Shown piece after piece: positions 7,013-44,645 of a stretch of 64,000 nucleotides of DNA. The stretch lies in NCBI GenBank assembly GCA_039799225.1, contig JBDLTF010000001.1:42488-106487 (forward strand), written 5' to 3'. Source of the DNA: Candidatus Parcubacteria bacterium. Its GTDB lineage: Bacteria > Patescibacteriota > Minisyncoccia > Phycocordibacterales > PALSA-1337. Each line of letters opens with the position of its first letter. Within the stretch, counting starts at the first letter, position 1. The translations under genes were made by a program, and so were the position numbers. The notes under the pieces are model-generated. The model did not search any database. It saw only the letters and a list, made by a program, of their open reading frames with translations, and had not been told where the DNA came from.

Positions 7013-7014
7013 CG

Positions 7015-7222: not shown

Positions 7223-7492
7223 ATGTTAACTACACGACAAAAGACCAAGATTATCAAGGACATCGCCGTCCACGATAAGGATACTGGCTCAGCAGAGGTC
7301 CAGGTTGCTCTCTTGAGCAAGAGGATCGCTGAACTCACCGATCACCTCAAGAAGCACAAGAAGGACAACCACTCACGCCGCGGACTCCTCGGTATGGTTG
7401 CTGATCGCCAGACACATCTCGTCTATCTCAAGAAGAACCACCCTCGCCGCTACTCGGCAGTCCTCAAGAAGTTGGATCTCAAGAAGAAATAA
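7223..7492 (+). CDS. rpsO: 30S ribosomal protein S15
   Basis: 89 aa. LTDHLKKHKKDNHSRRGLL..MV..R..LL.YL is the canonical S15 signature. Confidence 0.9.
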   Translation: MLTTRQKTKIIKDIAVHDKDTGSAEVQVALLSKRIAELTDHLKKHKKDNHSRRGLLGMVADRQTHLVYLKKNHPRRYSAVLKKLDLKKK

Positions 7493-7617
7493 ACTAGACA
7501 AGGCGCCGCAAGGCGTTTCTTGTTATACTAGTCTCTAGTTACGCATTTTAATATTTAGTTAATCCTGTTTAAGGTTTATTTGTGCACTTTTGCATTTTTA
7601 GCTTTGAACTTTTACAT

Positions 7618-8136
7618 ATGTCAGTTATAAAACACAAAGAACAACGCGTCGGTATATTTATCGATGCACAAAACCTCTATCACAGCGGTCGCAATCTCTA
7701 TCATTCAAAGGTAAATTTCGGCGCTATCGTCAAAGAAGCACTCGATGGGCGCAAGCTTGTCCGTGCGGTCGCCTACGTTATTGCCACCGAATCAGGTGAA
7801 GAAACAAGCTTTTTCGAAGCTCTCGAGAAGATGGGTATTGAAACCAAGGTCAAAGACCTTCAAATCTTCAGCTCAGGCGCCAAAAAGGCGGACTGGGACG
7901 TCGGTATGGCTATCGACGCAGTGAAGCTCTCACCAAAGCTCGATGCAGTTATCCTCGTTACCGGTGACGGCGACTTCTGTCCGCTCGTCGAGTATCTTCA
8001 GATGAATCAGGGTTGCCAAGTCGAGGTTGTCTCGTTCGGCAAGTCTACTTCTGCGAAGCTCATCGAGGTATCAGATCACTTCATGGACCTCGACCAGGGT
8101 TCAGGAAAGTATCTCCTCAGAATGGGGAAGAGGTAG
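7618..8136 (+). CDS. NYN-domain (LabA/DUF88-like) protein, a putative RNase, inserted between rpsO and pnp
   Basis: Motifs VGIFIDAQNLYHS, AVILVTGDGDFCPLV. The start is probably the internal ATG at 7618 (MSVIKHK...) rather than 7582. Confidence 0.65.
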   Translation: MSVIKHKEQRVGIFIDAQNLYHSGRNLYHSKVNFGAIVKEALDGRKLVRAVAYVIATESGEETSFFEALEKMGIETKVKDLQIFSSGAKKADWDVGMAIDAVKLSPKLDAVILVTGDGDFCPLVEYLQMNQGCQVEVVSFGKSTSAKLIEVSDHFMDLDQGSGKYLLRMGKR

Positions 8137-8167
8137 TCGTAGCAATCAAAAATCATTTTTGCTACAG

Positions 8168-8194
8168 TAAAGGTGCTTCGCAGCACCTTTTTAC
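8168..8194 (+). terminator. Intrinsic terminator aaaggtgc-ttcg-cagcaccttttt after the NYN gene
   Basis: Hairpin plus T-run. A pnp leader with RBS GGAGG follows. Confidence 0.5.
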
Positions 8195-8272
8195 TAATCT
8201 TAATCGCCTCTAGATAGGCAGATTTGAAGAGTGAACCTCATTCAAACCTGAAATCTGGAGGCGCCCTCATAC

Positions 8273-18861: not shown

Positions 18862-19851
18862 ATGAATCAAGAAGGTGGACACAAAAAACTCATACTAACG
18901 ATACTCGTACTCATTCTGCTTCTCATCGTTGCTGGCCTACTGATTCCTTGGAACAAACCTGAGGAAGTCGCCGTAGATACCACTGGAAATGGGACTGTCT
19001 TTTCTCCATTCGAACGTCCTGTAGATCGTGTAGTTGATACTCGATCGCCCGAAACTCCGTATACTTATGTACCTACACTCGAAACTCCAGAGGAGATTCC
19101 TGAGGAGCCGGCTATCGTAAACTCTGCACCAAGAACTCAGTCTTCATTCTATTCCGGAACTCAATCAAGCCAATCTTTCAATATACCCGTCTCGACGAGG
19201 CAAACTGGCGAAGTTGCATACATGGATACTTCTGGGGGAATATATTATGTTCCAACATACTCTCCGAGCCCTTACTATCGACCAACGTATACCTACTCGA
19301 CGAGCACTCGACCAGTAAGTCAGCCAGCAGCGCAAGATGATGGTATGACATTCAAAGAGCTGGACAAAGAAGTCTTCGGTTATATAAGCGGTCTTGGTTG
19401 GACTCAATTGCTTGGTGATACTGGCCAGAAAGTGTATGACATCCTCTATGGAATGTCTCCAAACGGCGGTACTGGAGGTACTATCGGTACATTCTTGCCT
19501 GGAGCAGGGGGTGCTGGAGGAGGAATTGGAGCTCTCGGAGGAGGCGGTATAGGGGGTCTCGGTGGCGGAGGTACTGCTATGGCATTTGGAGGACAAGTAA
19601 CTAGAGTAACCCAGTGTACCTGTGGAAATTCGAGCATGCTCGATATCACTGAAGCGACCGGACAGAATATATCACTCGTTTTCCAGCCAGGAGTGAGCAT
19701 TCTCTACAGGGAAGCGAACATCAACGGCATAGGCCAGAATGTTCTCGGAAATTACACTGCTGGCGGCGCCTGTCTTGTATATCACGGCGAAGATTGCACC
19801 GCTGAAGGTAGTCCTGGAGGCACCATTACCGAGGTTGGGACTTCGAAATAA
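18862..19851 (+). CDS. T4SS-like operon gene 1: membrane-anchored protein with a Pro/Thr/Tyr-rich linker and a Gly-rich repeat (GGTGGTIGTFLPGAGGAGGGIGALGGGGIGG)
   Basis: 329 aa. N-terminal TM, then low-complexity region. Begins 14 nt after rsmA. Confidence 0.5.
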   Translation: MNQEGGHKKLILTILVLILLLIVAGLLIPWNKPEEVAVDTTGNGTVFSPFERPVDRVVDTRSPETPYTYVPTLETPEEIPEEPAIVNSAPRTQSSFYSGTQSSQSFNIPVSTRQTGEVAYMDTSGGIYYVPTYSPSPYYRPTYTYSTSTRPVSQPAAQDDGMTFKELDKEVFGYISGLGWTQLLGDTGQKVYDILYGMSPNGGTGGTIGTFLPGAGGAGGGIGALGGGGIGGLGGGGTAMAFGGQVTRVTQCTCGNSSMLDITEATGQNISLVFQPGVSILYREANINGIGQNVLGNYTAGGACLVYHGEDCTAEGSPGGTITEVGTSK

Positions 19852-19902
19852 AGTCAGAAACAAAAACAGTGATACCTGTCCACAGATACGGCCGAGAATC
19901 TA

Positions 19903-20802
19903 TTGATTTTCTGCTATACTTGTAGTGACATGGCGAGCTATTACCCTCACAAACAGACGGTCTTGATCACGATCGCATGCGTCATAGCCGTAGGCGGCGT
20001 ATTTGTATACGCAAAGCAAGGTTCTAGCCCGAAAAAATCAGACTCAAAACCCTCTGTTTCGACTGATATCAAGGTGGTCTCTTCTGAGAAAATATCCTCC
20101 ACAACGGATTGGCGTCTGAGCTTCATCGACAAGCAGACTCCTTCGACACCAAAACCTATTTCTACTACTCAAGAATCGAAAGACCTTACTCTGACGGATC
20201 AATTCGGCAGAGATTTCTTCGCACGCTACATACAACTCAAGCAAAGCAACCTCATCGAGAATGAATCGTTCGTCGCTGATACGCTCAATCAGTCTATATA
20301 CTCCGCTGCTCAATCAGCTGAACAACCAAAAGCATATACTCTCGCGGATGTTTCCATTCTCGCAAATGCCACTACGGCTCAGATAAAAGCGTATGGTAAT
20401 TCTATCGGTCTAATATTTTCCACTCATGGAGTCGATGGAGATCCTGCAGTCGTTGCAAACGAGGCATTTGAAAAAGGGGATATGAGCTTACTCAAACAGA
20501 TAGACCCTATCATATCTTCATATGAAACTATCACCACCATGCTCAAAAATCTTTCTGTGCCTCAACCGCTCGCTGCATATCATGTAGATCTATTGAATGC
20601 TGTATCGAGCATGGCGAAGACATCTCGTGATATCCGCAATGTTGAAAGCGATCCTATGCAGACGATGGTGTCCGTAAGCGCGTATACCACCGTACAAAAC
20701 TCGCTCACTGTGTCACTCAAGAGTATGAAGTCTTATTTCTCCATCGTTGGTATCTCGTACGTTTCGACGGAGCCTGGTTCGATCTTTTCCCAACTATTAT
20801 AA
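19903..20802 (+). CDS. T4SS-like operon gene 2: membrane-anchored or secreted hypothetical protein
   Basis: 299 aa with an N-terminal TM/signal anchor. Confidence 0.5.
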   Translation: MIFCYTCSDMASYYPHKQTVLITIACVIAVGGVFVYAKQGSSPKKSDSKPSVSTDIKVVSSEKISSTTDWRLSFIDKQTPSTPKPISTTQESKDLTLTDQFGRDFFARYIQLKQSNLIENESFVADTLNQSIYSAAQSAEQPKAYTLADVSILANATTAQIKAYGNSIGLIFSTHGVDGDPAVVANEAFEKGDMSLLKQIDPIISSYETITTMLKNLSVPQPLAAYHVDLLNAVSSMAKTSRDIRNVESDPMQTMVSVSAYTTVQNSLTVSLKSMKSYFSIVGISYVSTEPGSIFSQLL

Positions 20803-20811
20803 AACACACTT

Positions 20812-22416
20812 ATGAATATCATTAACAAAAAAATCGCTTCGGTCCTCATACTCATCGCTTTCGTCATCTCTGGCACTCTCGCAACGCCAGCAACGACCTA
20901 TGCACTTGGAGCGGTTCCCGTCGACACAACATTCAACTTCCATAGCATCCAGCAACAAACGAAGGATTTCGTGCTGAACTCACTCGCATGGAATGTGGCT
21001 AAGATGACGTTGCAGCAGCTCACGACGAGTATCGTGAACTGGATCAACACTGGATTCGAGGGAAGTCCTGCATTCATCGACAACCCTGAGGCATTCTTCC
21101 TTGACCTTGGCGACCAAGTCACTGGAAACTTCATTGCAAACGTCGGACCACTCCAAAGCCTCTGTTCTCCATGGAATATCGACCTCCGTCTCTCACTCGC
21201 ACTCGGACAAACACGTTCAATGAGCGAACGCTATCGCTGTACCTTGAGTACACTCATCGGTAACGCGCAGAATGCGACTATCAATGGCTACAGTATCGAA
21301 GGATTCACTTCTGGCGACTTCGCTCAAGGAGGATGGCCAGCATTCATGATCATGACGAGCGAACCTCGCAACAATCCATACGGATCATATCTTCAGGCGA
21401 AGAGTGACCTCGATCAGCAGATAGCCGCTAAACAAAACTCCGTCAACAGTGACCTCGACAGGGGACAGGGCTTCCTCTCGTGGCAAAAGTGCGTTCCTAC
21501 CAACGTGAACAGCAATACAGGAAATGCATCTTCTCTTGGTCTCAATCAGAACGACCTCGCTCAATTGAATGCAAATGGTTCAGTAAATGCGAACGGTACA
21601 AGCTACAAAACGAGTACTGATCCTGAAACAGGATATACCGTATACGAAACATGCTCCGTACAAACTCCTGGATCGGTCATCAGTGCAGGTCTCAATAAGA
21701 GCCTTGGATCAAGTGTGGACCAGCTCAACCTTGCTGACTCGATCAACGAAATTACGAGTGCACTCTTCGCTCAGCTCATATCTCAAGTCTTCACTAAGGG
21801 TCTCGGTGGAAGCAGTCAAAGGTCAGGTGGTCAGACACAGTCATACATCGAACAACTCAATGCACAGTCGAGAGGTGCTGGTGCATATTCAAACTCGACG
21901 CAGAATATCCAGGCAAGCTACGCAATATATCTCACTGATGCCCAGTCAATCGTCAGCACGTATCAGCAAGCTGTAGGTGCATTCGACACTACCCGCAGTA
22001 GCTTCTCGATTGCACAGGGTTGCTTCCAAGATATCGCTCTCGTAGCAACGAAGCAAACCATCAAGAATGAGGCTCAGCGCAATGCAGATGCAATACAGTC
22101 ACTACTCATCAACCAGTTCGGCCCAGCAGCGCTCATATATTCAGACAAGCTCTCTACAGCAAACAGAATAGTCAGTACGATCAATTCTCGCGTCAATTCG
22201 GCACAGAATATCACCGATGCTCAGAGTGCACAGACTGCTTCGAACCAGTTGCAGGAATTCATCGCCACCCAAGTCCCCGCTATCCAGCAAGGCAAAGATC
22301 TTGGCGCGGCAGATCTTACCGCAGCACGAGCTCAAGCAGCACAATTCAAGACGAATGCTGATCAATATATGAATATGTGTACTTCACTCAAAAGCCAATC
22401 AGGTTCCTCACGATAA
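20812..22416 (+). CDS. T4SS-like operon gene 3: secreted Gln/Ser/Asn-rich hypothetical protein
   Basis: 534 aa with signal peptide ending ...GTLATPATTYA. Confidence 0.5.
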   Translation: MNIINKKIASVLILIAFVISGTLATPATTYALGAVPVDTTFNFHSIQQQTKDFVLNSLAWNVAKMTLQQLTTSIVNWINTGFEGSPAFIDNPEAFFLDLGDQVTGNFIANVGPLQSLCSPWNIDLRLSLALGQTRSMSERYRCTLSTLIGNAQNATINGYSIEGFTSGDFAQGGWPAFMIMTSEPRNNPYGSYLQAKSDLDQQIAAKQNSVNSDLDRGQGFLSWQKCVPTNVNSNTGNASSLGLNQNDLAQLNANGSVNANGTSYKTSTDPETGYTVYETCSVQTPGSVISAGLNKSLGSSVDQLNLADSINEITSALFAQLISQVFTKGLGGSSQRSGGQTQSYIEQLNAQSRGAGAYSNSTQNIQASYAIYLTDAQSIVSTYQQAVGAFDTTRSSFSIAQGCFQDIALVATKQTIKNEAQRNADAIQSLLINQFGPAALIYSDKLSTANRIVSTINSRVNSAQNITDAQSAQTASNQLQEFIATQVPAIQQGKDLGAADLTAARAQAAQFKTNADQYMNMCTSLKSQSGSSR

Positions 22417-22434
22417 TCTACTATCACAGACTCC

Positions 22435-24354
22435 ATGAAACGCTACCTGCCACATCTATCAGCAATTCTCATCCTTATCGCCATCATAGTAGGCGGATTT
22501 GGACATGTGGCAAATGCGGGATCATGTCTACCTATTCCAGGCCAGTGGAATACAAATGATTGTGTCATCGACCTCTTCGGATCTGCTATAGATATATTGC
22601 TTGGAGCAGCATCATGGATACTCGCTCTCTCAGGATATGTGCTCAACTTCTCAATGAAGCTGACACTCAATATCAAGACATTCGTGGATAATACTGGCGC
22701 AATCTATCTCGTCTGGAAATCAATCCGCGATATATCGGGTATGTTCATCATCTTCACCTTGATCTTCGCTGCCATCAAGATGATACTCGCTCCTATAGGA
22801 GTACCTGGTCCGAGTGTCGGAAAACTAATTACGACTGTGGTAACAGCCGGCATATTGATCAACTTCAGCTTCTTCATTGCTGGCCTCGGTATAGATATCT
22901 CCAACGTAATATCTGCACAGCTCTACAAGGTCATAGCGCCTGAAAGTAATATTTCTGGAGACATGAAAGTGAATCCTTCGTCATTGCGTGCGGGTCTCGA
23001 TGGGGGAATATCAGACATATTCATGAGCTCGCTCAAAATACAGAAGCTCTACGAAAGTGGACTTGCCGCTGATCCAGGTCGACAGGATCAAAATCCTGCA
23101 GAGACCACTATTCGAGTCATTTGGTCTGGAATCATCGGTATCGTCATCATGATCACCTCTGCACTCAGCTTCTTCCTCGCTGCGTTAGCATTCATCGTAC
23201 GCTTCGTTATTCTTATATTCCTGCTTGGATTCTCTCCTATCTGGCTTGCCGCGTACGCCATACCAGATCTCAAAAAATATGCCGACATGTGGACGAACAC
23301 ATACAAGAGTCAGCTCATCTTCATGCCGGTATATCTTCTCTTGCTCTATTTCGGCTTGAGTGTGCTTACAAGTGCTGACCTCTTCTGGGCTGGAAGCTTC
23401 GATGGGGCAGGGTGGCAAGAAAAGTTGCTCGTCTTCGGTATTAATGCGGCCTTCGTCATCATCATGCTCAATGCACCACTTCTTGCAGCTCTCAGTATTG
23501 GAGCAATGATGCCTAAGTGGGCGAATAATGTAGGTGCAGGAGCAATATGGAAGAGTGTTGGTGGATGGGCAGGTGGTATAGCTGGCAGAGGTACGATGCG
23601 AGTAACTGGTGCCTCGAAAGTTGATGGTTATCTTGCAAATACCAAGGTCGGTAACACTCAGTGGATGCGTGATCTAAGATCAGTAACAACAGGACCTATT
23701 ACCAAGGCAAAATTTGGTAGTTCAAGGTCTATTGAAGATGTCGACAAACTAGGTAAGGACGTACAATCAAAAGCAAAAGAAATACAGAGGGTCAAAGACA
23801 TTAAAGCTCTTATTGCGAATGGTTCAGCGACACGAGATGAATATGCGAATGTATTCAAATCCGTTAAACCTGCTGACCGCGTAGAGCTGATTGGAAAGGA
23901 TAATCTCAAGAATCCAAGTGTCTGGAAGAACCTTGGAAAGGCTGAGCTCGACGCAATAGAGAAATCAGACAAATTTAGCCCTGATGACATCAGCAGTATA
24001 AAGAATGCCCGCAACGCAGCACTCACCTCAGCAGTAGCTGACGGAAGAAAAGACGACACTAGTCATGTCTTGAAAAATACAAATACGGAGGATTTGGCTG
24101 AAATTATTTCAAGTAACACTGCTATGCTCGCTAATCCAAACTTTATTGGTGAGCTGACATCGGAAAATCTAACAAAGTTGAAAGGTGGCCTCACTGAGCC
24201 TCAGCAACATGAAATAGCAAAAACTATTCTGACATGGCGCAGTGGCCCATCAGATCCAGCGCATCCTGCGGAAGGTTGGATGAAACGCGAAGCGAAAAAG
24301 TGGGTTACTTCGGACGTGACCGCACACGGAAAAACATACGCTCCAGAAGCCTAA
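22435..24354 (+). CDS. T4SS-like operon gene 4: polytopic membrane protein of the VirB6/TrbL type with a hydrophilic C-terminal extension
   Basis: 639 aa. Signal/anchor, then six or more TM helices over about 380 aa, then a Lys-rich soluble tail. This topology is typical of VirB6/TrbL. Confidence 0.5.
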   Translation: MKRYLPHLSAILILIAIIVGGFGHVANAGSCLPIPGQWNTNDCVIDLFGSAIDILLGAASWILALSGYVLNFSMKLTLNIKTFVDNTGAIYLVWKSIRDISGMFIIFTLIFAAIKMILAPIGVPGPSVGKLITTVVTAGILINFSFFIAGLGIDISNVISAQLYKVIAPESNISGDMKVNPSSLRAGLDGGISDIFMSSLKIQKLYESGLAADPGRQDQNPAETTIRVIWSGIIGIVIMITSALSFFLAALAFIVRFVILIFLLGFSPIWLAAYAIPDLKKYADMWTNTYKSQLIFMPVYLLLLYFGLSVLTSADLFWAGSFDGAGWQEKLLVFGINAAFVIIMLNAPLLAALSIGAMMPKWANNVGAGAIWKSVGGWAGGIAGRGTMRVTGASKVDGYLANTKVGNTQWMRDLRSVTTGPITKAKFGSSRSIEDVDKLGKDVQSKAKEIQRVKDIKALIANGSATRDEYANVFKSVKPADRVELIGKDNLKNPSVWKNLGKAELDAIEKSDKFSPDDISSIKNARNAALTSAVADGRKDDTSHVLKNTNTEDLAEIISSNTAMLANPNFIGELTSENLTKLKGGLTEPQQHEIAKTILTWRSGPSDPAHPAEGWMKREAKKWVTSDVTAHGKTYAPEA

Positions 24355-24363
24355 TATCATTAT

Positions 24364-25098
24364 ATGAAGCAAACACCTCAACAATTTAGAGACCTCGCTG
24401 ACTCAGCTGAACTCTACGACCGATCCGAAGCGATTGGCGCGAAATTTGGTCTGCTCATCGACCAAATAGGGGAGTTGGATGCAGAAATTCGCGACATTCT
24501 CAATGGTGTCAGTGATTCGGAAGACTTCATCAAGCACATCATCCAGCGTCTTGAGATAGACCGCGGACTCGCCGAAAAAATAGTAACGGAGGTCAATGTG
24601 GCCGTATTCCAAACACTCAAAGACCAGATGCAGGCACGAACGGATGCTCAGGATATACAAGACTCAATCTCGAGCGTAGAGAAAGTGGGTGATTTCAGGA
24701 TAGAGAAGGATAGAGTGCCTGCAGATCCGAAAGTTACTGCTGCGGATAGGAGCAAGATACTCGATAGTCTCGAAAATCCACCGGCTCAAGGAGGTGCGTA
24801 CCCAAAATCAGTCTCTACAGACCATACTGAACCTCTTGTCGACCATCTTCTTCAAAATTCAGTAGGACAGCTTGCGCCGAAGCCTCACCACGAAGCTCCA
24901 GCTCCAAGCAATCTCCCTGTAGTAGAAGAGATTCCTCTGAAAACACCTGCGCCAACTCCAATAAAAGCTCCAGCACCTACCGCCCCAAAGCCTGTTCAAG
25001 CACCAACACAACCGACAACTACTCCAGAAGTACCGAAAACTCCAGCACCTCAACCAAAAAGGTCTGGACCTGACCCTTATAGGGAACTAGCGAACTAG
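24364..25098 (+). CDS. T4SS-like operon gene 5: soluble protein with a Pro/Ala-rich C-terminus
   Basis: 244 aa. Confidence 0.45.
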   Translation: MKQTPQQFRDLADSAELYDRSEAIGAKFGLLIDQIGELDAEIRDILNGVSDSEDFIKHIIQRLEIDRGLAEKIVTEVNVAVFQTLKDQMQARTDAQDIQDSISSVEKVGDFRIEKDRVPADPKVTAADRSKILDSLENPPAQGGAYPKSVSTDHTEPLVDHLLQNSVGQLAPKPHHEAPAPSNLPVVEEIPLKTPAPTPIKAPAPTAPKPVQAPTQPTTTPEVPKTPAPQPKRSGPDPYRELAN

Positions 25099-25132: not shown

Positions 25133-25564
25133 ATGCGCTATCAAGTCCCCCAATTTATCGAGGTTGAGGACAAGATCTTCGGCCCACTTACCTTGAAACA
25201 GTTCATATATCTCGCCGGCGGGGGAGGTCTCTCATTTTTGGCCTATGTATTTGTCGGTAGTCTCACTATCGCCATAGTACCTATCATTGTCATCATGGCA
25301 ATATCCTCTGCTCTGGCATTCTATCGAATCAATAACAAACCATTCGTTAACATCGTCGAATCTGCATTCAAATACTGGCTCGGTAGCAAGCTCTACATCT
25401 GGAAAAAAGAAGACAGGGCATCACAAACCGCGAAATCAGTTGATGCAGACATCAAGAACTACGCCTCAATCATGGTTCCGAAAATTTCTGATAGTAAGCT
25501 GAAGGATTTGAGTTGGAGCTTGGACATCAAAGAAAGTATGTACTCTGACAAGAAACAAAAATAA
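25133..25564 (+). CDS. T4SS-like operon gene 6: small two-TM protein of the VirB3/PrgI type
   Basis: 143 aa. Two adjacent TM helices, positioned immediately upstream of the VirB4 ORFs as in Gram-positive T4SS loci. Confidence 0.5.
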   Translation: MRYQVPQFIEVEDKIFGPLTLKQFIYLAGGGGLSFLAYVFVGSLTIAIVPIIVIMAISSALAFYRINNKPFVNIVESAFKYWLGSKLYIWKKEDRASQTAKSVDADIKNYASIMVPKISDSKLKDLSWSLDIKESMYSDKKQK

Positions 25565-26205
25565 TGGCTCCCAAACAATCAACAACTCAAGGATTTATAC
25601 CGATACAGGAGATTCGCGACGGCGTAGTCATCCTCAAGAACGGCGGTATGCGCGCAGTCGTCTTGGCGTCGTCTCTCAACTTCGCTCTCAAGTCACAGGA
25701 TGAGCAGAGCTCAATCCTTATGCAGTTCCAGAATTTTGTGAACTCACTCGATTTTTCCATACAAATATTCGTCCAGTCTAAGAAACTCGATATCAGACCA
25801 TACATCGCGCTTCTCGAAGACCGCTACAAAGAACAGGTGAGTGAGCTCATGAAGATTCAGGTTCGTGAATACATCGAATTCATCAAAACATTCGTCGAGA
25901 GTACCAACATCATGTCCAAGAGCTTCTTCGTGGTCATACCCTATGATCCACCTATTATGAGTGGTAGCAAAAATCCTCTCGCCAGCATGTTCCCAGGGAA
26001 GAGTGGTGACAAAACTGCAGCAGAGAGCTCAAATGCAAAATTCCAAGAATATCGCAGCCAACTCGAACAGCGTGTCGGCGTGGTAGAGCAGGGCCTCGTG
26101 CGTTGCGGTGTCCGTGCGGCTGAGCTTGGTACAGAAGAAGTAGTTGAGCTCTTCTACAAACTCTTCAACCCTGGCGAGACGGAGAAGCCAATTCAGATAA
26201 CTTAA
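25564..26205 (+). CDS. VirB4/TrsE-family ATPase, N-terminal segment (split gene)
   Basis: 213 aa. The N-terminus resembles the VirB4 N-terminal domain. It ends with TAA 5 nt before the next ORF, which is in a different frame. Confidence 0.55.
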   Translation: MAPKQSTTQGFIPIQEIRDGVVILKNGGMRAVVLASSLNFALKSQDEQSSILMQFQNFVNSLDFSIQIFVQSKKLDIRPYIALLEDRYKEQVSELMKIQVREYIEFIKTFVESTNIMSKSFFVVIPYDPPIMSGSKNPLASMFPGKSGDKTAAESSNAKFQEYRSQLEQRVGVVEQGLVRCGVRAAELGTEEVVELFYKLFNPGETEKPIQIT

Positions 26206-26210
26206 AAGAT

Positions 26211-28022
26211 ATGTCATTCCTCAACAAACTATTCGGAAAAAAAGAAGCTTCTCCTATCGTCTCAATCCTGCCCGAGGAGATCTATCAGGCTGGCGTCCTC
26301 GAACTCAAGGATGTTATTTCGCCATCAGCGCTCAAGGTGAGTCCGAAGGATATAAATCTCGGAGAAAAAGTTGGTCGCACACTCTTCGTCATCTCATACC
26401 CACGCTTCCTCGATGAGAGCTGGTTCGCGCCAATCATAAACCTCGACAAGATATTCAATATCTCCATATTCATACATCCTGTCGATACTGCGAAGATTTT
26501 GAGGCATTTCCAGAAGAAGGTTGCTGAAGTTCAGAGCCAGATCTCCCATAGGGAAGAGAAGGGTCTCGTTCGTGATCCAGCGCTCGATACCGCATACCAA
26601 GATCTCGAGCAGCTTCGCGATCAGCTCATGCAAGCACAGGAGCACCTCTTCGATGTTGGTGTGTATATTACTCTCTTCGCTGATAATGAGGGTGAGCTCG
26701 ACAAGCTTGAATCAGAGATCAAGTCTATCCTCGAGTCCAAGCTTATCTATGTGAAGCCAGCTCTCTTCCAACAGGAACAGGGATTCAAGTCTGTTATTCC
26801 GATCGCTGACGATCAGCTCGCCGTTCATTCCAAGCTCAACTCGTCACCGCTCTCATCTCTTTTTCCATTCGTCTCATTCGACCTCACCTCAGACAAGGGA
26901 ATCCTCTACGGTATCAACCGTCACAACTCATCACTCGTACTCTTCGATCGCTACTCACTCGAGAACTACAACTCGGTGACTTTCGCCGTTGCCGGTGCTG
27001 GAAAATCCTACAACACCAAGCTTGAGATCCTCCGAACACTCATGTTTGATGTCGACGTCATAGTCATCGACCCTGAGAAGGAATATGAATACATGGCGGA
27101 AGCAACAGGAGGGAAGTACTTCAATATCTCACTCAACTCAGAGCACCACATAAACCCATTCGATCTTCCGATACCACGCGAGGATGAGTCTGGTGCAGAT
27201 GTGCTCCGCTCAAACATCATCAACCTTGTCGGTCTCTTCCGCATCATGTTGGGAGGTCTCACACAAGAAGAAGATGCAATCATAGATCGTGCCATCACTG
27301 AAACTTACGCCCTCAAAGATATCACTCCTGAGGCTGATTTCCGCACCGTCGAACCACCACTTCTCTCCGACTTTGAGCTCGTGCTTGCCGGCATGGAAGG
27401 GGGAGAATCTCTTGTGCAGAGGCTCTCGAAATATACCAAAGGAACTTGGTCAGGCTTCATCAATAGGCCGTCAAACATCGATATCAATAAGAAATTCGCT
27501 GTGTTTTCACTCCGCGACATGGAAGATGAGCTCAAGCCAGTGGCCATGTACATCGTCACACACTACATCTGGAATGCTATCCGCAAGAACCTCAAGAAGC
27601 GCCTTCTTGTTATCGATGAGGCGTGGTGGATGATGAAATCAGAGGACACGGCTTCATTCTTGTTCAGCCTCGCCAAGCGTGGTCGTAAATACTTCCTCGG
27701 TCTCGCCACAATCACTCAGGACGTGGATGACTTCTTGAATTCACCGTATGGACTGCCGATTGTGACCAACTCCTCAATCCAGATTCTTTTGAAACAGTCA
27801 CCAACTGTTATTGATCACGTCCAGAAGACTTTCAACCTCACTGATGAAGAGAAATACCTCTTGCTCGAGTCAGACGTAGGGGAGGGTATATTCTTCGTGG
27901 GTCTCAAGCACGTCGCCATCAAAATCGTCGCCTCATATACTGAAGACCAAATCATCACCACCAACCCTGCTCAGGTTTTGAGCATACAGCAATCAAAGAA
28001 GGATCTTGAGCAGGCTGGGTAA
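26211..28022 (+). CDS. VirB4/TrsE/CagE-family T4SS ATPase (ATPase domain)
   Basis: 603 aa. Walker A FAVAGAGKSY, Walker B RLLVIDEAWWMM, and motif ATITQDVDDF. Confidence 0.75.
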   Translation: MSFLNKLFGKKEASPIVSILPEEIYQAGVLELKDVISPSALKVSPKDINLGEKVGRTLFVISYPRFLDESWFAPIINLDKIFNISIFIHPVDTAKILRHFQKKVAEVQSQISHREEKGLVRDPALDTAYQDLEQLRDQLMQAQEHLFDVGVYITLFADNEGELDKLESEIKSILESKLIYVKPALFQQEQGFKSVIPIADDQLAVHSKLNSSPLSSLFPFVSFDLTSDKGILYGINRHNSSLVLFDRYSLENYNSVTFAVAGAGKSYNTKLEILRTLMFDVDVIVIDPEKEYEYMAEATGGKYFNISLNSEHHINPFDLPIPREDESGADVLRSNIINLVGLFRIMLGGLTQEEDAIIDRAITETYALKDITPEADFRTVEPPLLSDFELVLAGMEGGESLVQRLSKYTKGTWSGFINRPSNIDINKKFAVFSLRDMEDELKPVAMYIVTHYIWNAIRKNLKKRLLVIDEAWWMMKSEDTASFLFSLAKRGRKYFLGLATITQDVDDFLNSPYGLPIVTNSSIQILLKQSPTVIDHVQKTFNLTDEEKYLLLESDVGEGIFFVGLKHVAIKIVASYTEDQIITTNPAQVLSIQQSKKDLEQAG

Positions 28023-28509
28023 CATCATTATGGATACAAATCCCAAAAAGAGAACTCTTGCAAAGATAGTCCTTTTCGGATTTTCTGCAATCGTAGACTT
28101 CGCTCAGGTACTCATAACCTTCACTGGTGTCGGTATAGTGGTGAGTGAAGCGATTGAGATTGCTATGCCATTTGCCTTATTCGCACTATTCACTATATTC
28201 AAGATATCTATCATCAATAAACCGAGAAGAGTGGCATCTATGCTTGCTGTCGGATTTGGAGATGCTTTGACGGGTGGTGTAGCGCCATTTTGGGTATTCG
28301 ATGTCTACTATATATTCCGAGATGTGGCCAGAGAAGACGCCCTTATAAATTCAGAACGAGAACAATCTGAAGCCTTGGCAAACACCACAATGCAGCCTTT
28401 ATACCAAAATGGTGTCAGACAGCCACAATCTCAGCCTAATGAAAGACCACAGAACAAACTCAACAAAAATGGTATCCGAGCACCTGGAGGAGGACTGGTC
28501 AAAAGCTAG
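28006..28509 (+). CDS. T4SS-like operon gene 9: small membrane protein with three TM helices
   Basis: 167 aa. Confidence 0.45.
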   Translation: MSRLGNIIMDTNPKKRTLAKIVLFGFSAIVDFAQVLITFTGVGIVVSEAIEIAMPFALFALFTIFKISIINKPRRVASMLAVGFGDALTGGVAPFWVFDVYYIFRDVAREDALINSEREQSEALANTTMQPLYQNGVRQPQSQPNERPQNKLNKNGIRAPGGGLVKS

Positions 28510-28562
28510 CCTATACACATTTTTCATCGCATATAGAGCGTAATATTGCTAAAATAGAGTCA

Positions 28563-29597
28563 ATGAACTCTCGTTTTCTCTCATTTTTGATTGTATGCAT
28601 TTGCATCTCTTTCTTGTGGGTATCTACTGTTTCAGCCCAGACCATACCTACAGGAATTAGTGGCCTCGTCATCGAGACGTCGTCTTCCAATCCGTACCCA
28701 GGACAGGAGGTAACGGTAACACTCAAAAGCTACTCTATAGACATAGACTCTTCGACTATATCTTGGTCCATAAACGGGAAAGCTGTCCAGAGCGGTATAG
28801 GTACAAAAACCGTCAAAGTAATCGCCCCTGACCTTGGAAAATCATTGGTGGTATCTGTAAGCGCTCGTGCAAGCTCTGGAGCGACAATGTCTGATTCAAT
28901 AACAATAAGCCCAAGCTCCGTCGACATGATAGTGGAATCAGATGGCTATGTGCACCCACTCTTCTCAGGAAAAGTATCTCCACGATATCAGAACGTGGTC
29001 AAAATAATTGCTGTACCACATCTCAGCGCAGCCAACGGAACAGAATACGACCCGAAGACACTCATATATACTTGGAAAAAGGGAAGTACTGTACTCCAAG
29101 ACCAGTCCGGTTATGGTAAACAGTCTATCTATCTCGCAGGAGACATCGTTCCACGACCATACGAGGTGACTGTGTCGATCGCTACGCGTGATGGTGGTGC
29201 ACAAGGACAAGGAACTTTGTCCATCGGCGCAACAAACCCATCAATAGGATTCTATGTCACCGATCCGCTCTACGGAACTTTCTTCAATAAGGCTGTGACT
29301 AACACTGTACGCATAGGTTCAGAGAAGGAGACTTCTGTTCTCGCTGTACCATTCGGATTTAACAAGCCTATAGATGGTATCGGGAATCTTTCATTGACCT
29401 GGCTCATCAACAGTATCAAACACTCTGAACTAGCTTCTAGCCAATCTGTCATTTTGCGCGCACCTGAAGGATCTGCAGGAACATCCAACATACGCCTCGA
29501 TATCAGGAATAGCGATAAGATTCTACAGAGCGCAAGTACTGGATTCTCAGCGAGCTTCACTGGGAATACTGAAAGCGAGGAAGATGTCTCATTCTAA
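28563..29597 (+). CDS. T4SS-like operon gene 10: secreted beta-rich hypothetical protein
   Basis: 344 aa with a signal peptide. Confidence 0.5.
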   Translation: MNSRFLSFLIVCICISFLWVSTVSAQTIPTGISGLVIETSSSNPYPGQEVTVTLKSYSIDIDSSTISWSINGKAVQSGIGTKTVKVIAPDLGKSLVVSVSARASSGATMSDSITISPSSVDMIVESDGYVHPLFSGKVSPRYQNVVKIIAVPHLSAANGTEYDPKTLIYTWKKGSTVLQDQSGYGKQSIYLAGDIVPRPYEVTVSIATRDGGAQGQGTLSIGATNPSIGFYVTDPLYGTFFNKAVTNTVRIGSEKETSVLAVPFGFNKPIDGIGNLSLTWLINSIKHSELASSQSVILRAPEGSAGTSNIRLDIRNSDKILQSASTGFSASFTGNTESEEDVSF

Positions 29598-29606
29598 TCA
29601 TTTCTC

Positions 29607-30764
29607 ATGAATACACTTATGAAAAAAACATGCACACTAGCCTTAGCGACATATATCATCGCCGTATCCATCGCACCGATAACTATATATGCAGATACTG
29701 GATCAAATACCACCTCTGGAAATTCTGTCGCGACCTATACATTGCTTGAACCATTACCTTGTCTCAATGACGGAACACAAAAATGTACGGATGGGGGGAT
29801 AGTTACACAGGTAAACTTCGCCGACTATGTTCGTTATATGTTCAATTTGATTATTGCACTCTCAGCCGTTGCGGCAGTGCTCGTCATTGTCGCTGGAGGA
29901 TTCAAATATGTCACCACCGACTCATTCCAAGGCAAGAATGACGGAAAGAAGATGATACTTGAGGCACTCAAAGGACTTCTGCTGGTACTCTGTTCTTACC
30001 TTATCCTCAGAACAATCGACCCTCGTCTTGTGGATATACCTTCGACAATAGTGAAGCCTCTTCCGATCAGTTATCAAAAAGGAGTGACTTACGGTTATTT
30101 CGACCAGCTCGCATCAGAAGCTAGCAAGTATAATGCGAATGATCGAGCAGCCGTACTCGCTCGAGAAGTAGCGAAGAAACAGACTCAGGATCTCAAAAAT
30201 CAGCTGGATATAATTGACGAGAAGCTAGGAAAAATATACAGCGGTGATGCAGAAGCGACTCAGGAAGAAATAAATTCACTGAGTAAACAACGTGCGCTTA
30301 TTTCTGATCAGATAAATGGAACTATTTCTGAGGCAACAATACAAAATGCTATTGCTATATACAACGCACAAATGCGAAATGTGGTTGACCCTAAGGATGA
30401 AGTCACTCTCGACACGATAGAAGCCTACCTGAATAACATTCAGAAAGTGAATGCTTCAACACAAGAACAACTCAACAAGAATTTGAATGAAGAGACACCT
30501 GAGCAGAAAGAAAAGCTCGCAAATGAAAAATCCTATTCGGAAGCTAGAATACTCATAGTGAAATACGAACATTTCACCACTTCGCTCGATCCAAAAGCAG
30601 TTGATGCTGCAATAGCAAAACTGAATTCACTAAAGACAACCACTATCGCATCGATTACTGACAAAACACGAAGAGATGAATTGACCAGCGCTGCAGATAA
30701 AGCGATCGAGAGCTTGAAGGCAAGCATTAGCACTGACGCTTATGATGGTGGTGTAATGTATTAA
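29607..30764 (+). CDS. T4SS-like operon gene 11: signal peptide plus two hydrophobic helices separated by a short loop (VirB2/TrbC-pilin-like topology), then a roughly 230-aa coiled-coil extension
   Basis: 385 aa. Confidence 0.4.
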   Translation: MNTLMKKTCTLALATYIIAVSIAPITIYADTGSNTTSGNSVATYTLLEPLPCLNDGTQKCTDGGIVTQVNFADYVRYMFNLIIALSAVAAVLVIVAGGFKYVTTDSFQGKNDGKKMILEALKGLLLVLCSYLILRTIDPRLVDIPSTIVKPLPISYQKGVTYGYFDQLASEASKYNANDRAAVLAREVAKKQTQDLKNQLDIIDEKLGKIYSGDAEATQEEINSLSKQRALISDQINGTISEATIQNAIAIYNAQMRNVVDPKDEVTLDTIEAYLNNIQKVNASTQEQLNKNLNEETPEQKEKLANEKSYSEARILIVKYEHFTTSLDPKAVDAAIAKLNSLKTTTIASITDKTRRDELTSAADKAIESLKASISTDAYDGGVMY

Positions 30765-30777
30765 TCGATAGATTTCT

Positions 30778-32100
30778 ATGAAAAAAATCCTCCCCGTACT
30801 CCTCATATTCCTCATCCTCGCAGCCACGGGGTATTGGTATTTCTTCATGCGCACATCAACAACTGGTACAACACCTGATACGACTGGAACTGATCAGCAG
30901 GGAGGATTCCAGCCATTTGGAAGACCTTCAACAGGAGGTCAGCAAGGAACAGAGACCGGGAGCATTCCTGTAGTTTCAACAAGCACTGATGTATCAACTC
31001 CAGTCAAAATACCCACCCTCCGCCTCTTGAGTGCTACGCCTGTCGGAGGATACGGCGCCAGCACGACCGCTAGCACGACCGTTATACGTTGGGTAGATCG
31101 CGGAAGGGGCAACATATACGAGGCACGTGGTAACACTCTCGATACCATCACTATATCCAATACCATCGTTCCAAGGATATACCAAAGTATATGGAATAAG
31201 GCCGCAAATGCATTTATCGCTTCAACACTCGACGAGGATGGAGCATCTATAGGCTCAGTCTACGCCGACATCAAAGCCCGCATCATTCCCAAGGCTGCTA
31301 CAAGCACCTCGGCCACAAGCACACCTAGACTCGGACTTGGAGTAGGGGCGGATGGGCAGACTATCACTCCTTATGAGCTTAAGGGTAAAAACCTTCCTGA
31401 GAATATCGTTGCATACGCCGCATCTCCGAAGAGAGACAAACTTTTCATGCTTGTCGATGATAATGGTACTGGCATAGGCTATGTATCCACATTCGATGGA
31501 AAGTCCGTGACTCAGATCTTCAGCACTCCACTCACCCAACTCAATGTAGAATGGCCTGAGGAGAATACGATTGCTCTAACAACAAAGGGTACAGCTAGCG
31601 AAGGGGGGTACCTCTACTTTGTTAACGCAAAGACAGGTATCTGGAGTAAAATTCTCGGTCCACTCGCGGGTATAAGTACTCGTGTGAGTACTGATGCCAA
31701 GCGTGTACTTGTATCTACCACCGGTAGCAACAAGAATGTTCTTGCGAGTATTTATACCGTTGCCGACAAGAAGGGTATAGATGCAATCGTCAGAACACTC
31801 GCCGACAAATGTATTTGGGGTAATTTCTATAAAGAAATGGTGTACTGTGCGACACCATCACAACCAACAGCAGGAATATATCCTGATGACTGGTACACAG
31901 GAACTATTTCGACCGTAGACAAGATATGGCAGATCAACGGAGCAACGGGGGAGATTCAACTCGTCTCTTCTATAATCGATACTTCCGACCGTGTCATCAA
32001 TGCATTCAATCTCGGTCTAGATCAGAAGGACAACTTCCTCTTCTTCATGAATAAAGATGACTTATCTCTCTGGTCACTCGACTTGGTTTCAAGCAACTAG
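30778..32100 (+). CDS. T4SS-like operon gene 12: membrane-anchored or secreted hypothetical protein
   Basis: 440 aa with an N-terminal TM. Confidence 0.5.
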   Translation: MKKILPVLLIFLILAATGYWYFFMRTSTTGTTPDTTGTDQQGGFQPFGRPSTGGQQGTETGSIPVVSTSTDVSTPVKIPTLRLLSATPVGGYGASTTASTTVIRWVDRGRGNIYEARGNTLDTITISNTIVPRIYQSIWNKAANAFIASTLDEDGASIGSVYADIKARIIPKAATSTSATSTPRLGLGVGADGQTITPYELKGKNLPENIVAYAASPKRDKLFMLVDDNGTGIGYVSTFDGKSVTQIFSTPLTQLNVEWPEENTIALTTKGTASEGGYLYFVNAKTGIWSKILGPLAGISTRVSTDAKRVLVSTTGSNKNVLASIYTVADKKGIDAIVRTLADKCIWGNFYKEMVYCATPSQPTAGIYPDDWYTGTISTVDKIWQINGATGEIQLVSSIIDTSDRVINAFNLGLDQKDNFLFFMNKDDLSLWSLDLVSSN

Positions 32101-32154: not shown

Positions 32155-32895
32155 CTATTTATTTATATGTTTCTTACGAATATAGAGTTCTTGAGCGAGA
32201 GTGAAGAGAGTGCTTGTTGACCAATAGATAGCGATGATAGCTGCTGCTTGAGGGAATCTGGACGGAATAAGCCAATACGTCGAAGCGAATGCGAGGATAG
32301 GGAGCAAATACTTCATCTGCTTGTTCATCGAGTTCGATATCTGACTTGCGGCATCATTGGTATTCGAAGGAGCTGTAGGCTTTGATGCAAGTGAGTATTT
32401 AAGCTGAAAATACTGTATACCTGCGGTTATAAGCGACAATATAAGACTTTTTTGTGTAAGATCCACGAGACCAAGGAAATGTGTCTTGATTATAGGTACC
32501 GATATGAAGCTATAGAGATATTCAGGATGAATATCTGGAATAATCTTATAGAAGACCGAGATGATAGCGAAGAGAACGGGAAGTTGTATGAAGACAAGGA
32601 GGACACCAGAGAATGGTTTAACACCTTTGGACTTGTAGAGCTCCATAATCTTAAGAGCTTGAGTCTGCTTATCCTTCCCATACTGAGCTCTGATCTGAGC
32701 GGCCTCAGGCTCGATATCCTTCATTTTGACCTGAGTAAGCAAAGAAGCCTTCGAGAGGGGGTAGAGAACGAGCTTCACGAGCACAGTAAACACGATGACA
32801 GCAATACCGACATCAATCCATGGAACAAGGTCCATAATACCGATAAGGCCGTTATAGAGCGGGCGGAATATAATTTCATTGTACATGCCGTACAT
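32155..32895 (-). CDS. yidC: Membrane protein insertase YidC (short Gram-positive-type form)
   Basis: 246 aa. Five TM helices and conserved position downstream of rnpA. Confidence 0.8.
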   Translation of the reverse strand: MYGMYNEIIFRPLYNGLIGIMDLVPWIDVGIAVIVFTVLVKLVLYPLSKASLLTQVKMKDIEPEAAQIRAQYGKDKQTQALKIMELYKSKGVKPFSGVLLVFIQLPVLFAIISVFYKIIPDIHPEYLYSFISVPIIKTHFLGLVDLTQKSLILSLITAGIQYFQLKYSLASKPTAPSNTNDAASQISNSMNKQMKYLLPILAFASTYWLIPSRFPQAAAIIAIYWSTSTLFTLAQELYIRKKHINK

Positions 32896-33541: not shown

Positions 33542-33628
33542 TTGTCCCCAACTTATCAACATAAATTTTATCTCTCCACAAGTTTGCAAATCTATAAACA
33601 GGTATATACTTACTGGGCATCAAATCCT

Positions 33629-34975
33629 ATGAATGACTTCACGAAAATGTGGCAAACTGCGCTCATAGAGATAGAGACTGCCGTCTCCCAAGCTAATTTT
33701 TCAACCTGGTTCAAAGATATCAAGATACTGCGCGAGGATGAGGGGGTAGTCTATCTCGGGGTTCCGAACTCATTTACTCATGAGTGGCTCCAAAAGAAGT
33801 TCCATAACTCGATTTTGCGTATTTTGCGCCAAATGAATGAGCGTGTTCGTGCTCTTGAGTACGTGATCGTCAAAGAAGAGGGTAAGGGGGGACACCAAGC
33901 CAAGAAGGATGCCTTGAATATGCCTACAATCGCGATGCCTTTGCAGGATTTCTATATAAACAGGGAGGACAACCTCAATCCTCGCTATACATTCGAGTCT
34001 CTGGTCGTTGGACCATTCAATGAAGTCGCTCATGCTGCTTCCCAGAGCGTTGTGAAGGCTCCAGGACAGTCATATAACCCACTCTTCATATACGGACAGA
34101 CTGGTCGTGGTAAGACTCATATGATTCAGGCTGTCGGAAATCAGATAAAGAGCCTATTCCCAGACAAGAAAGTCTTCTATCTAACCTCGGAAAGGTTCGG
34201 TTCTGAGCTTTTTGCAGCAATTCAAGAGGCGAAGGTTCAAGCATTCAAGGATAGATACAGGAAGTATGACGTTATTATTATGGACGACGTTCAATTCTTC
34301 GCAGGAAAGGAGAAATTCCAAGAGGAACTATTCCATTTCTTCAATACATTCTATGATTCTGCTCGTCAGCTCGTATTCTCGTCAGATAAGCACCCAAATG
34401 TCATCCCTGGCCTTGAAGATCGTCTCAAGGGTAGATTCAACGCAGGAATGATTATAGATATACCTGAGCCTGATCAGGAATCCCGTATGATGATTGTGCG
34501 TACGAAGTGTACTCCACACAATATAACCCTCTCTGATGACGTAATCGACTATATAGCATCATCTATAGAGGACAATATCCGCGAGATAGAAGGTATCATC
34601 AATGTGATTGCCTGCCAGACTCAGCTCAAGAACAGGGAACTAAGTCTCAATGAGATTAAGAATATCCTCAAAAACAACGTAAAACCTAAGAAGATGATGT
34701 CTGTAAAGGATGTTGTGAAGATCGTATCTGAGTTCTATAACATCGATGAGGATAGTATATACAACAAAACTCGTCGAAAGGAGGTTGTAAGGCCTCGTCA
34801 GGTAGTCATGTACATCTTAAGAGAGGATTTCGGCATATCATTCCCTTCTATAGGAGAGAAACTTGGAGGAAGAGATCATACGACTGTTATCCACTCATAT
34901 GAGAAGATGCGAGAGGAGATAAAAACTGATCAATTACTCTCTCAGGAGATTACCCAAGTCCGTACGATGCTGTAG
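33629..34975 (+). CDS. dnaA: Chromosomal replication initiator DnaA
   Basis: AAA+ Walker A GQTGRGKTH, box VII, and a C-terminal HTH. The real start is probably MNDFTKMWQ at 33629, not the upstream 33542. Confidence 0.9.
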   Translation: MNDFTKMWQTALIEIETAVSQANFSTWFKDIKILREDEGVVYLGVPNSFTHEWLQKKFHNSILRILRQMNERVRALEYVIVKEEGKGGHQAKKDALNMPTIAMPLQDFYINREDNLNPRYTFESLVVGPFNEVAHAASQSVVKAPGQSYNPLFIYGQTGRGKTHMIQAVGNQIKSLFPDKKVFYLTSERFGSELFAAIQEAKVQAFKDRYRKYDVIIMDDVQFFAGKEKFQEELFHFFNTFYDSARQLVFSSDKHPNVIPGLEDRLKGRFNAGMIIDIPEPDQESRMMIVRTKCTPHNITLSDDVIDYIASSIEDNIREIEGIINVIACQTQLKNRELSLNEIKNILKNNVKPKKMMSVKDVVKIVSEFYNIDEDSIYNKTRRKEVVRPRQVVMYILREDFGISFPSIGEKLGGRDHTTVIHSYEKMREEIKTDQLLSQEITQVRTML

Positions 34976-35200: not shown

Positions 35201-36307
35201 ATGAAGATAGATATTGGATTCAAAAAACTGAAAGACACGATCCAACTCATAGAAAGAGTTGCAGGGAAGCATCAGACATTGCCTGTGCTCTCATGTATTC
35301 TCATAGAAGTAGATAAGAATACTGCCACATTCAAGGCGACCAATCTGGATGTTGGGGTAGAGGTTGTTGTTCCTGTTAAATCAGATGGTTCAGGTACTAT
35401 AGCTGTTCCAGCCCACACTATATCTTCATTCATCTCTCAGGCGAGTGATCAGAATCAAATCATATCTATTGAAGTTATATCAGGAAATGCTCATATCAAG
35501 ACTAATAAGTCGAAAGGAGTTATAAAAACACTTCCAGTAGATGATTTTCCTTCTATACCAAAAGTCTCTGATGGTCAGGAATATTCAATCTCCCCAGAAG
35601 TATTCATTCAGGGATTGAGCTCAGTTTCATACAGCGCATCAATATCGAGTGTAAAGCCAGAACTTTCGAGTATATATGTGTACAAAGATGGGGAATACCT
35701 CACATTTGTGGCGACTGACTCATTCCGTCTTGCTGAGAAAAAGATCAAGAATGGAAGCGGATCGAAGGTTGTTGATACATTGATACCATTTAAGAATACT
35801 CAAGATATTATACGCATACTCCAGAGTATGGGTTCTTCGGTGACAGTTAGAGCGAATAAGAATCTTATCTCATTTGAGAATGATGGGGTATATATAGTAT
35901 CGCGTGTTATTGATGGAGTATTTCCTGATTATAGACAAATTATCCCTAAGGCATTCACTACTGAAGTTGTAGCTCTTAAACAAGATATTCTCAACTCATT
36001 GAAGATATCGAATATTTTCTCTGATAAATTCAATCAAGTTCATCTTACTATAGATCCAAAAGGTAAAATGTTTGAGATACAGACCAAGAATAGTGATATT
36101 GGAGAAAATCAAACACTTGTAGATGCTGCTCTGACAGGGGATAGAATGGAGATTAACTTCAACTATAGATATCTCATAGATGGATTCCAGTCGATAGATG
36201 CCGACAGTGTATCTCTACAACTCAATGGTTTGAATCGTCCTGTGGTCATTAAACCAGTGTCAGGTGACCAAACATTCCTCTACCTAGTGATGCCGATGAA
36301 CAGATAG
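35201..36307 (+). CDS. dnaN: DNA polymerase III beta sliding clamp
   Basis: 368 aa with a three-domain clamp pattern, downstream of dnaA. Confidence 0.85.
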   Translation: MKIDIGFKKLKDTIQLIERVAGKHQTLPVLSCILIEVDKNTATFKATNLDVGVEVVVPVKSDGSGTIAVPAHTISSFISQASDQNQIISIEVISGNAHIKTNKSKGVIKTLPVDDFPSIPKVSDGQEYSISPEVFIQGLSSVSYSASISSVKPELSSIYVYKDGEYLTFVATDSFRLAEKKIKNGSGSKVVDTLIPFKNTQDIIRILQSMGSSVTVRANKNLISFENDGVYIVSRVIDGVFPDYRQIIPKAFTTEVVALKQDILNSLKISNIFSDKFNQVHLTIDPKGKMFEIQTKNSDIGENQTLVDAALTGDRMEINFNYRYLIDGFQSIDADSVSLQLNGLNRPVVIKPVSGDQTFLYLVMPMNR

Positions 36308-44495: not shown

Positions 44496-44645
44496 TGATG
44501 TACAGTATAGCGACAAGTGAGGACTTGTGGAAGCTCGCTTACACAAAGTCCGAGCGCGGATGATATATGAGCGGAGCGAATATTTCGCAAAAAAGGGAGC
44601 TGTGTCGTGCGGATAAGAGCTCTCAACTAAGCCATGGGAAGCCTA

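Follow-up and report, generated by a model that had tools for sequence, protein, structure and literature searches.

We describe a VirB4 ATPase that is encoded by two adjacent genes in a 64,000-nucleotide (nt) stretch of DNA from a Candidatus Parcubacteria bacterium (contig JBDLTF010000001.1, positions 42,488 to 106,487; hereafter the window, in whose own numbering all coordinates are given). The first open reading frame, ORF1 (25564..26205, plus strand; ATG start, TAA stop at 26203-26205), encodes a TrsD-like protein of 213 amino acids (aa), the first alpha/beta module of the VirB4 N-terminal domain as a separate gene. The second, ORF2 (26211..28022, plus strand; ATG start), encodes the 603-aa VirB4 core, in which the P-loop ATPase C-terminal domain follows the second half of the N-terminal domain. 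ORF1 and ORF2 were shown to be complementary, and not redundant, parts of one VirB4. It is highly probable that they constitute a genuine two-subunit VirB4 motor, belonging to a chromosomal, origin-proximal type IV secretion system (T4SS) in a Patescibacteria (Paceibacteria-type) bacterium. Our analysis confirms that the two-gene arrangement is real, functional and conserved, and that it has already been published in Patescibacteria.

Complementary parts of one VirB4

Only five nucleotides (AAGAT, 26206..26210, plus strand) separate the ORF1 stop codon from the ORF2 start, ORF2 lies in the +2 (equivalently -1) frame relative to ORF1, and the combined length of the two products is 816 aa. Immediately upstream, a prgI gene (25133..25564, plus strand) encodes a VirB3-like small membrane protein of 143 aa (Pfam PF12666 PrgI, E 5e-12), and its stop codon shares one nucleotide with the start of ORF1 (TAATG; junction sequence CAAAAATAATGGCTC). 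The sole homopolymer at the ORF1/ORF2 junction is an A4 run that begins at 26204, and no Shine-Dalgarno-like sequence is visible in the 5-nt spacer. The coordinates, 5-nt gap, differing frames and total of about 816 aa reported in the initial annotation of this DNA agree exactly with the ORF table and with the raw sequence. The Walker motifs that it assigned to the larger ORF were likewise located in ORF2, with the Walker A motif AVAGAGKS at residues 259-266 (nt 26985-27008) and the Walker B motif LLVIDEAW at residues 465-472 (nt 27603-27626).

Judged by its sequence, ORF2 is unambiguously a VirB4-type ATPase. It matches the NCBIfam model of CD1110-family VirB4 (NF045971) with 365 bits (E 8e-109, cutoff 325), spanning profile positions 180-733 of 752, and its Pfam matches are P-loop_TraG (E 1.2e-24), AAA_10, DUF87 and TraC_F_IV. 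The crystallised C-terminal domain of VirB4 (PDB 4AG5) aligns to residues 228-583 (E 1.3e-38), and ahead of this aligned region ORF2 keeps about 225 aa of the VirB4 N-terminal domain. The ATPase polypeptide carries only part of an N-terminal domain whose full size is about 400 aa: it starts at about profile position 180, the earlier positions being encoded by ORF1, and VirB4 function would therefore belong to the ORF1/ORF2 pair and not to ORF2 alone. The initial annotation had divided the locus into an N-terminal domain and an ATPase-bearing remainder; the split is real, but the break falls inside the N-terminal domain and not at a domain boundary.

ORF1 is a TrsD-like protein that corresponds to approximately the first 200 residues, that is, the first alpha/beta module, of the canonical VirB4 N-terminal domain. 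It matches N-terminal positions of several VirB4 profiles (NF045971, positions 2-110; NF045975, positions 100-233; PRK13891, positions 53-203) and, weakly, the NCBIfam TrsD/TraD profile NF041427 (24 bits, E 2.8e-5, positions 13-142 of 201). Homologues of ORF1, up to 94% identical to it, carry a precomputed PF26593 tag. A sequence search of the PDB with ORF1 gave no meaningful match. When its AlphaFold2 model (predicted local distance difference test, pLDDT, of 73) was used in a fold search of the PDB, the top 14 matches were all R388 TrwK/VirB4 chains, with E values of 1.6e-4 to 3e-3 over about 220 aligned columns, and the next match after these had an E value of 0.18.

Joined together, ORF1 and ORF2 align as a single stretch (residues 3-766 of 816) to positions 3-726 of the 792 in the TIGR00929 VirB4_CagE profile, of which ORF2 alone covers positions 274-726 only. 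As the joint alignment is uninterrupted and that of ORF2 alone is partial, the two ORFs together make up one VirB4, each supplying what the other lacks, and are not a VirB4 accompanied by an extra copy. The joined protein scores 381 bits against NF045971 (cutoff 325). With TIGR00929 the score falls short of the cutoff (124 versus 643), as it does with the models of Gram-negative VirB4. The complementarity follows from these complementary profile matches, together with a colinear fused homologue of 797 aa and the fold model of ORF1, for which TrwK/VirB4 chains are the only significant PDB matches. In the fused homologue (P0166), residues 5-215 are 45% identical to ORF1 and residues 225-796 are 56% identical to ORF2, in a colinear arrangement without duplication. 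An AlphaFold2 model of this protein, built on a 64-sequence alignment (pLDDT 76), matches full-length R388 TrwK/VirB4 over about 830 aligned columns (E 8.6e-28); at the junction between its two parts, residues 211-230, the pLDDT is 64-65, as is typical of a linker.

An internal duplication of the VirB4 N-terminal domain was also considered and was rejected. Profile-profile comparison (hhalign) of the ORF1 family with the N-terminal region of ORF2 returned a probability of 0.2%, and ORF1 is therefore not a copy of what ORF2 already has. Separately, residues 14-207 and 239-393 of the P0166 model resemble each other in the succession of their secondary-structure elements (three strands, helix, strand, two helices, strand, helix, strand, helix). 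This similarity hints that the domain may have arisen by an ancient internal duplication, one that leaves no profile-profile sequence signal, in which case the gene split would lie between the two copies.

Homologues of ORF1 in distant lineages can be considerably longer. In P0187 (443 aa), P0207 (432 aa) and P0159 (356 aa), the conserved module of about 210 aa is followed by a low-complexity C-terminal tail of 100-230 aa that is rich in P, A, T and Q, a tail that ORF1 does not have.

Conservation and age of the split

The junction between the two genes was compared across the best 80 of 360 confirmed related loci, drawn from GTDB species-representative genomes, all of which are metagenome-assembled genomes (MAGs). 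These are mostly labelled as Patescibacteria-group, Paceibacteria/Paceibacterota, Parcubacteria, Taylorbacteria, Nomurabacteria or Saccharibacteria, and about a dozen are named simply 'uncultured bacterium' or 'bacterium'. None of the 78 loci with both genes has them joined, and the two genes always share a strand and keep their order. Twelve loci have an ATGA overlap (a spacer of -4 nt), 13 have a spacer of 1 nt and 9 have one of 4 nt, and the longest spacer measures 194 nt. The second gene lies in relative frame +1 in 31 loci, +2 in 27 and 0 in 20, and the ORF1 homologue ends in TAA (39), TGA (24) or TAG (15). Protein lengths are constant, at 210-222 and 602-614 aa, ranges that leave out one locus with an in-frame stop (L073) and one with an assembly gap (L058). 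The C-terminus of ORF1, which ends in PIQIT before the stop, and the N-terminus of ORF2, which begins with MS, are conserved as well. As expected of TrsD, ORF1 stands alone, is close to 200 aa long and directly precedes the gene for a VirB4-type ATPase, and the same holds for its counterparts in the 78 relatives. In 79 of the 80 loci, the gene directly upstream of the ORF1 homologue is a prgI homologue, and in 62 loci the spacer between these two does not exceed 9 nt.

Both genes were shown to be under strong purifying selection. Between ORF1 and its closest relatives, nonsynonymous divergence (dN) is 0.05-0.11 and synonymous divergence (dS) is at least 1.8 or saturated, which gives a ratio (omega) of about 0.04 or less, and the constraint on ORF2 is even stronger; since dS is saturated for most pairs, these omega values are meaningful only as upper bounds. 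The closest homologues of ORF1 and ORF2 are Paceibacteria/Patescibacteria MAG proteins, with identities of up to 94% and 98%, respectively. More than 8000 homologues of ORF1 are present in a protein collection clustered at 90% identity, and the best 120 of them all carry the PF26593 tag and are 210-235 aa long, with 79-94% identity to ORF1, those that are named being from Patescibacteria MAGs.

Two further features of the related loci were observed. One, in L073, is an in-frame TAG at codon 31 of an otherwise well-conserved ORF1 homologue (about positions 6085-6087 of that locus; MR-stop-VIL, compared with MRAVVL in the window), which is a genuine nonsense mutation or else an error in the assembly of the MAG. 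The other is the presence, in long spacers between the trsD-like gene and virB4, of palindromic repeats of the GNRA-hairpin type, whose core is TCCCGCGAAAGCGGGA and which are often embedded in GTCATTCCCGCGAAAGCGGGAATCCAG. Such repeats occur in L015 (6791-6806), L043 (5891-5906 and 6668-6683), L047 (five copies within 5951-8619) and L073 (9163-9178), and a version with 2 mismatches is found in the window itself at 60237-60252. They look like small intergenic elements of the REP/MITE type (repetitive extragenic palindromes or miniature inverted-repeat transposable elements) that recur in several Paceibacteria-type genomes.

The standalone form of the ORF1 family also predominates among the best matches of a wider survey. 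An exhaustive HMMER scan of 1.84 billion cluster representatives (50%-identity clusters) yielded 2344 clusters at E<=1e-3, and among the best 150 cluster representatives 149 are standalone proteins of 146-443 aa, the remaining one being the fused P0166 (797 aa). A search with P0166, in turn, retrieved at least 116 clusters of single-chain proteins of 775-807 aa, which, where named, belong to Candidatus Colwellbacteria or Patescibacteria. In a neighbour-joining tree of the TrsD-like domain, a crude one without support values, the fused sequences form one clade, which, with a Bacillota plasmid sequence as the root, is nested among the standalone ones. Because the fused clade is nested in this way, and because the homologues on Bacillota plasmids are standalone, parsimony would make the split old and the Colwellbacteria-type fusion secondary. 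We therefore suggest, tentatively, that the split is ancient and that the fused form is derived.

A recent fission inside the fused clade was considered and discarded, as the two proteins of about 600 aa that would have represented it, P0289 (L081) and P0385 (L082), are broken by runs of N in their scaffolds. An 824-aa VirB4 in L058 is likewise a gap artefact, and caution is needed when split and fused forms are counted from protein databases.

A probable two-subunit motor and the alternatives

How could two polypeptides function as one motor? In the model that we favour, prgI, the trsD-like gene and virB4 would be translated in a coupled manner, by way of the 1-nt overlap and then the 5-nt gap. 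The TrsD-like protein would bind the ORF2 protein non-covalently, and thereby complete the N-terminal domain. This complex would dock on PrgI/VirB3 at the membrane, by analogy with the VirB4 N-terminal domain in the inner-membrane complex of R388 (PDB 7O41/8RTB), and would assemble into a hexameric ATPase that powers the pilus or the secretion apparatus. The existence of a natural fused form serves as 'Rosetta-stone' evidence for a physical association between the products of ORF1 and ORF2.

Several points weigh against the two-subunit reading. For ORF1, the 24 bits obtained with NF041427 compare with a curated cutoff of 200, and a Pfam-A scan returned no family even at E<=1, in a copy of the database whose inclusion of PF26593 is not established. 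Given a score below the TrsD cutoff and no Pfam match, the family assignment of ORF1 draws on remote homology, on the PF26593 tag and on a published CONJScan-based survey. The confidence of the structural models is moderate (pLDDT 73-76), and their TM-scores to TrwK are only about 0.45-0.49. Approximately a quarter of the relatives have spacers of 17-194 nt, so that tight translational coupling is not universal.

Other explanations of the locus deserve consideration. The initial annotation had set a genuine, possibly functional domain split beside a frameshift or pseudogenising sequencing error, and had proposed that the conservation of the split among orthologues in related genomes would bear on the choice. 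A frameshift introduced by sequencing or assembly, or a recent pseudogenising mutation, could have divided one virB4 of 816 codons, and such an event would fit with two ORFs that are 5 nt apart in different frames, with the A4 run at their junction, and with the single-chain homologues of about 790 aa in other Patescibacteria. We nevertheless regard it as vanishingly improbable. In 78 of 78 species-level genomes the genes are separate, every relative frame and every stop codon is represented among them, and the spacers span -4 to 194 nt. Conservation extends to the C-terminal end of ORF1 and the N-terminal end of ORF2, the omega of ORF1 is about 0.04 or less, and standalone homologues of about 213 aa number more than 8000. 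The only apparent exceptions are the scaffold-gap artefacts described above. Genes that are conserved as separate units under selection, while their spacers, frames and stops vary, could not have arisen through erroneous sequencing, recent pseudogenisation or programmed frameshifting, and it is the genuine domain split that this conservation, together with the strong purifying selection, bears out.

Programmed ribosomal frameshifting or stop-codon bypass, by which the two ORFs would yield one polypeptide, has in our estimate next to no chance of being correct. The 5-nt gap and the -1/+2 frame relation would permit recoding in principle, but the relatives share no conserved slippery site, their frame relations of 0, +1 and +2 are roughly equal in number, and their spacers can reach 46-194 nt and contain palindromic repeats. 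Mixed frames and long, repeat-bearing spacers are incompatible with a conserved recoding signal. Somewhat less remote, and still unlikely, is the idea that ORF1 is an independent accessory protein, either a member of an unrelated family, as the initial annotation had also envisaged, or an extra, paralogous VirB4 N-terminus beside a complete VirB4. One may argue for it from the lack of a sequence match to ORF1 in Pfam-A or the PDB, and from the long disordered C-terminal tails of homologues elsewhere, as in an autonomous protein. However, ORF2 is without the first ~180 VirB4 profile positions, and it is exactly those that ORF1 matches; the fused homologues are colinear and free of duplication; and the profile-profile comparison of ORF1 with the N-terminal part of ORF2 was negative (probability 0.2%). 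An unrelated family is further contradicted by the matches of ORF1 to the N-terminal part of VirB4 profiles and by a fold search whose significant matches are TrwK alone.

With the two-subunit motor in mind, one may speculate further. According to this speculation, which we put forward with real reservation and hold to be possible rather than probable, the motor is an obligate heteromer (for example 6:6), the split is the ancestral state in the whole pGO1-type/Patescibacteria T4SS lineage and was followed by re-fusion in the Colwellbacteria type, and the free module acts as an exchangeable adaptor. The disordered tails of 100-230 aa seen in other lineages could tune the docking to PrgI/VirB3 or to substrates.

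Genomic setting and related systems

The genes yidC (32155-32895, minus strand; Pfam 60KD_IMP), dnaA (33542..34975, plus strand; Pfam Bac_DnaA, DnaA_N and DnaA_C) and dnaN (35201-36307; Pfam DNA_pol3_beta) are found 4-8 kb downstream, which places the T4SS cluster at the replication origin region. Nine ORFs on the same (plus) strand flank prgI/trsD/virB4 in 18862-25098 and 28006-32100, five of them upstream (329, 299, 534, 639 and 244 aa) and four downstream (167, 344, 385 and 440 aa). Eight of the nine have no Pfam assignment at E<=0.01, and they are presumably the remaining, fast-evolving components of the T4SS (VirB6-like and VirB8-like proteins, pilins, adhesins). The 385-aa protein (29607-30764, plus strand) has a weak match to T4SS_pilin (PF18895) at residues 78-135, with an E value of 4.4e-4 that is below the cutoff of the family, and could belong to the VirB2-like pilins known from T4SS clusters in Patescibacteria. 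The 639-aa protein (22435-24354) gave no Pfam match that would identify it as VirB6-like. Neither a relaxase nor a VirD4 was detected among the window ORFs that were scanned, which were some of the total. Farther along the window, a T2SSE-family ATPase (42822-44546, minus strand; PF00437, E 1.7e-115), unrelated to the VirB4 pair, is probably the motor of a type IV pilus or type II secretion system typical of Patescibacteria.

A comparable layout is known from plasmids. In the pGO1 subclass of MPF_FATA, TrsD/TrsE of the staphylococcal plasmids pGO1/pSK41 and TraD/TraE of pIP501 likewise pair a standalone homologue of the VirB4 N-terminus, about 200 aa long, with a shortened VirB4-type ATPase encoded just downstream. 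Their homology to ORF1 is remote and was compared through the NF041427 profile only (24 bits versus a cutoff of 200). These systems serve the conjugation of plasmids and include a relaxase and a coupling protein, whereas the ORF1/ORF2 locus is chromosomal and origin-proximal, of a type that according to the literature usually has no relaxase. The TraD of pELF plasmids, which was also considered for comparison, is a VirD4 and hence irrelevant. Plasmids of Bacillota (pGspE55-1, pCBG and about 100 other PLSDB records) show the same order of prgI, small protein and ATPase, with overlapping genes. The small protein and the ATPase measure 318 and 636 aa in Geobacillus subterraneus pGspE55-1, and 257 and 620 aa in Clostridium botulinum pCBG. 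The small proteins share 24-32% identity with ORF1 across more than 90% of its length, and cover VirB4 profile positions 2-174, with the partner ATPase beginning at about position 183. They differ from ORF1 in being longer (257-318 aa) and plasmid-borne, and are annotated only as 'hypothetical' or 'TraC family'. Single-chain VirB4 proteins (R388 TrwK, PDB 7O41/8RTD; the VirB4 of the CD1110 family and of Mycoplasma integrative and conjugative elements; the 775-807-aa proteins of Colwellbacteria) have the same overall domain content and order as the ORF1/ORF2 pair, but in one polypeptide and not in two, and identity to TrwK is only 12-16%.

Among Patescibacteria, TrsD is already on record. It has been described as remotely homologous to the VirB4 N-terminus in PMC12102498, which cites Guglielmini 2014 (PMC4027160), a paper whose main text does not contain the word TrsD. 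It is found in the pGO1 subclass of MPF_FATA without an assigned function, and no other T4SS component is as abundant in Patescibacteria, where 2,272 homologues are counted, 1,664 of which adjoin virB4 (PMC12102498). The essential genes of Ca. Southlakia epibionticum ML1 include a TrsD-like one (PMC12102498), and the epibiotic growth of this species, the one that is tractable, requires the T4SS (Wang et al. 2023, PMC10633639). In Paceibacteria, T4SS clusters have been reported close to dnaA and dnaN (Quinonero-Coronel et al. 2025, Microb Genom, PMC12102498). With these chromosomal systems (PMC12102498; the SEML1 T4SS, PMC10633639) the present locus shares a small TrsD-like gene immediately upstream of virB4, an adjoining prgI and a chromosomal site beside dnaA/dnaN; it differs from them in nothing substantive and is another instance of the same arrangement. 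An explicit statement that VirB4 lacks a part that TrsD supplies, or mention of a fused clade, was not found in PMC12102498 or PMC10633639. Our additions, the strict complementarity of the two halves and a fused clade that is named mostly Colwellbacteria and is apparently derived, are small increments.

For annotation, this means that ORF1 should be named TrsD-like protein or VirB4 N-terminal module instead of 'hypothetical protein', and that the pair should be neither flagged as a pseudogene nor 'repaired' into one gene. Current understanding of these secretion systems is unchanged by our finding. A motor made of two polypeptides, together with its natural fused variant, offers a simple handle for structural work on the poorly characterised N-terminal domain of monoderm VirB4.

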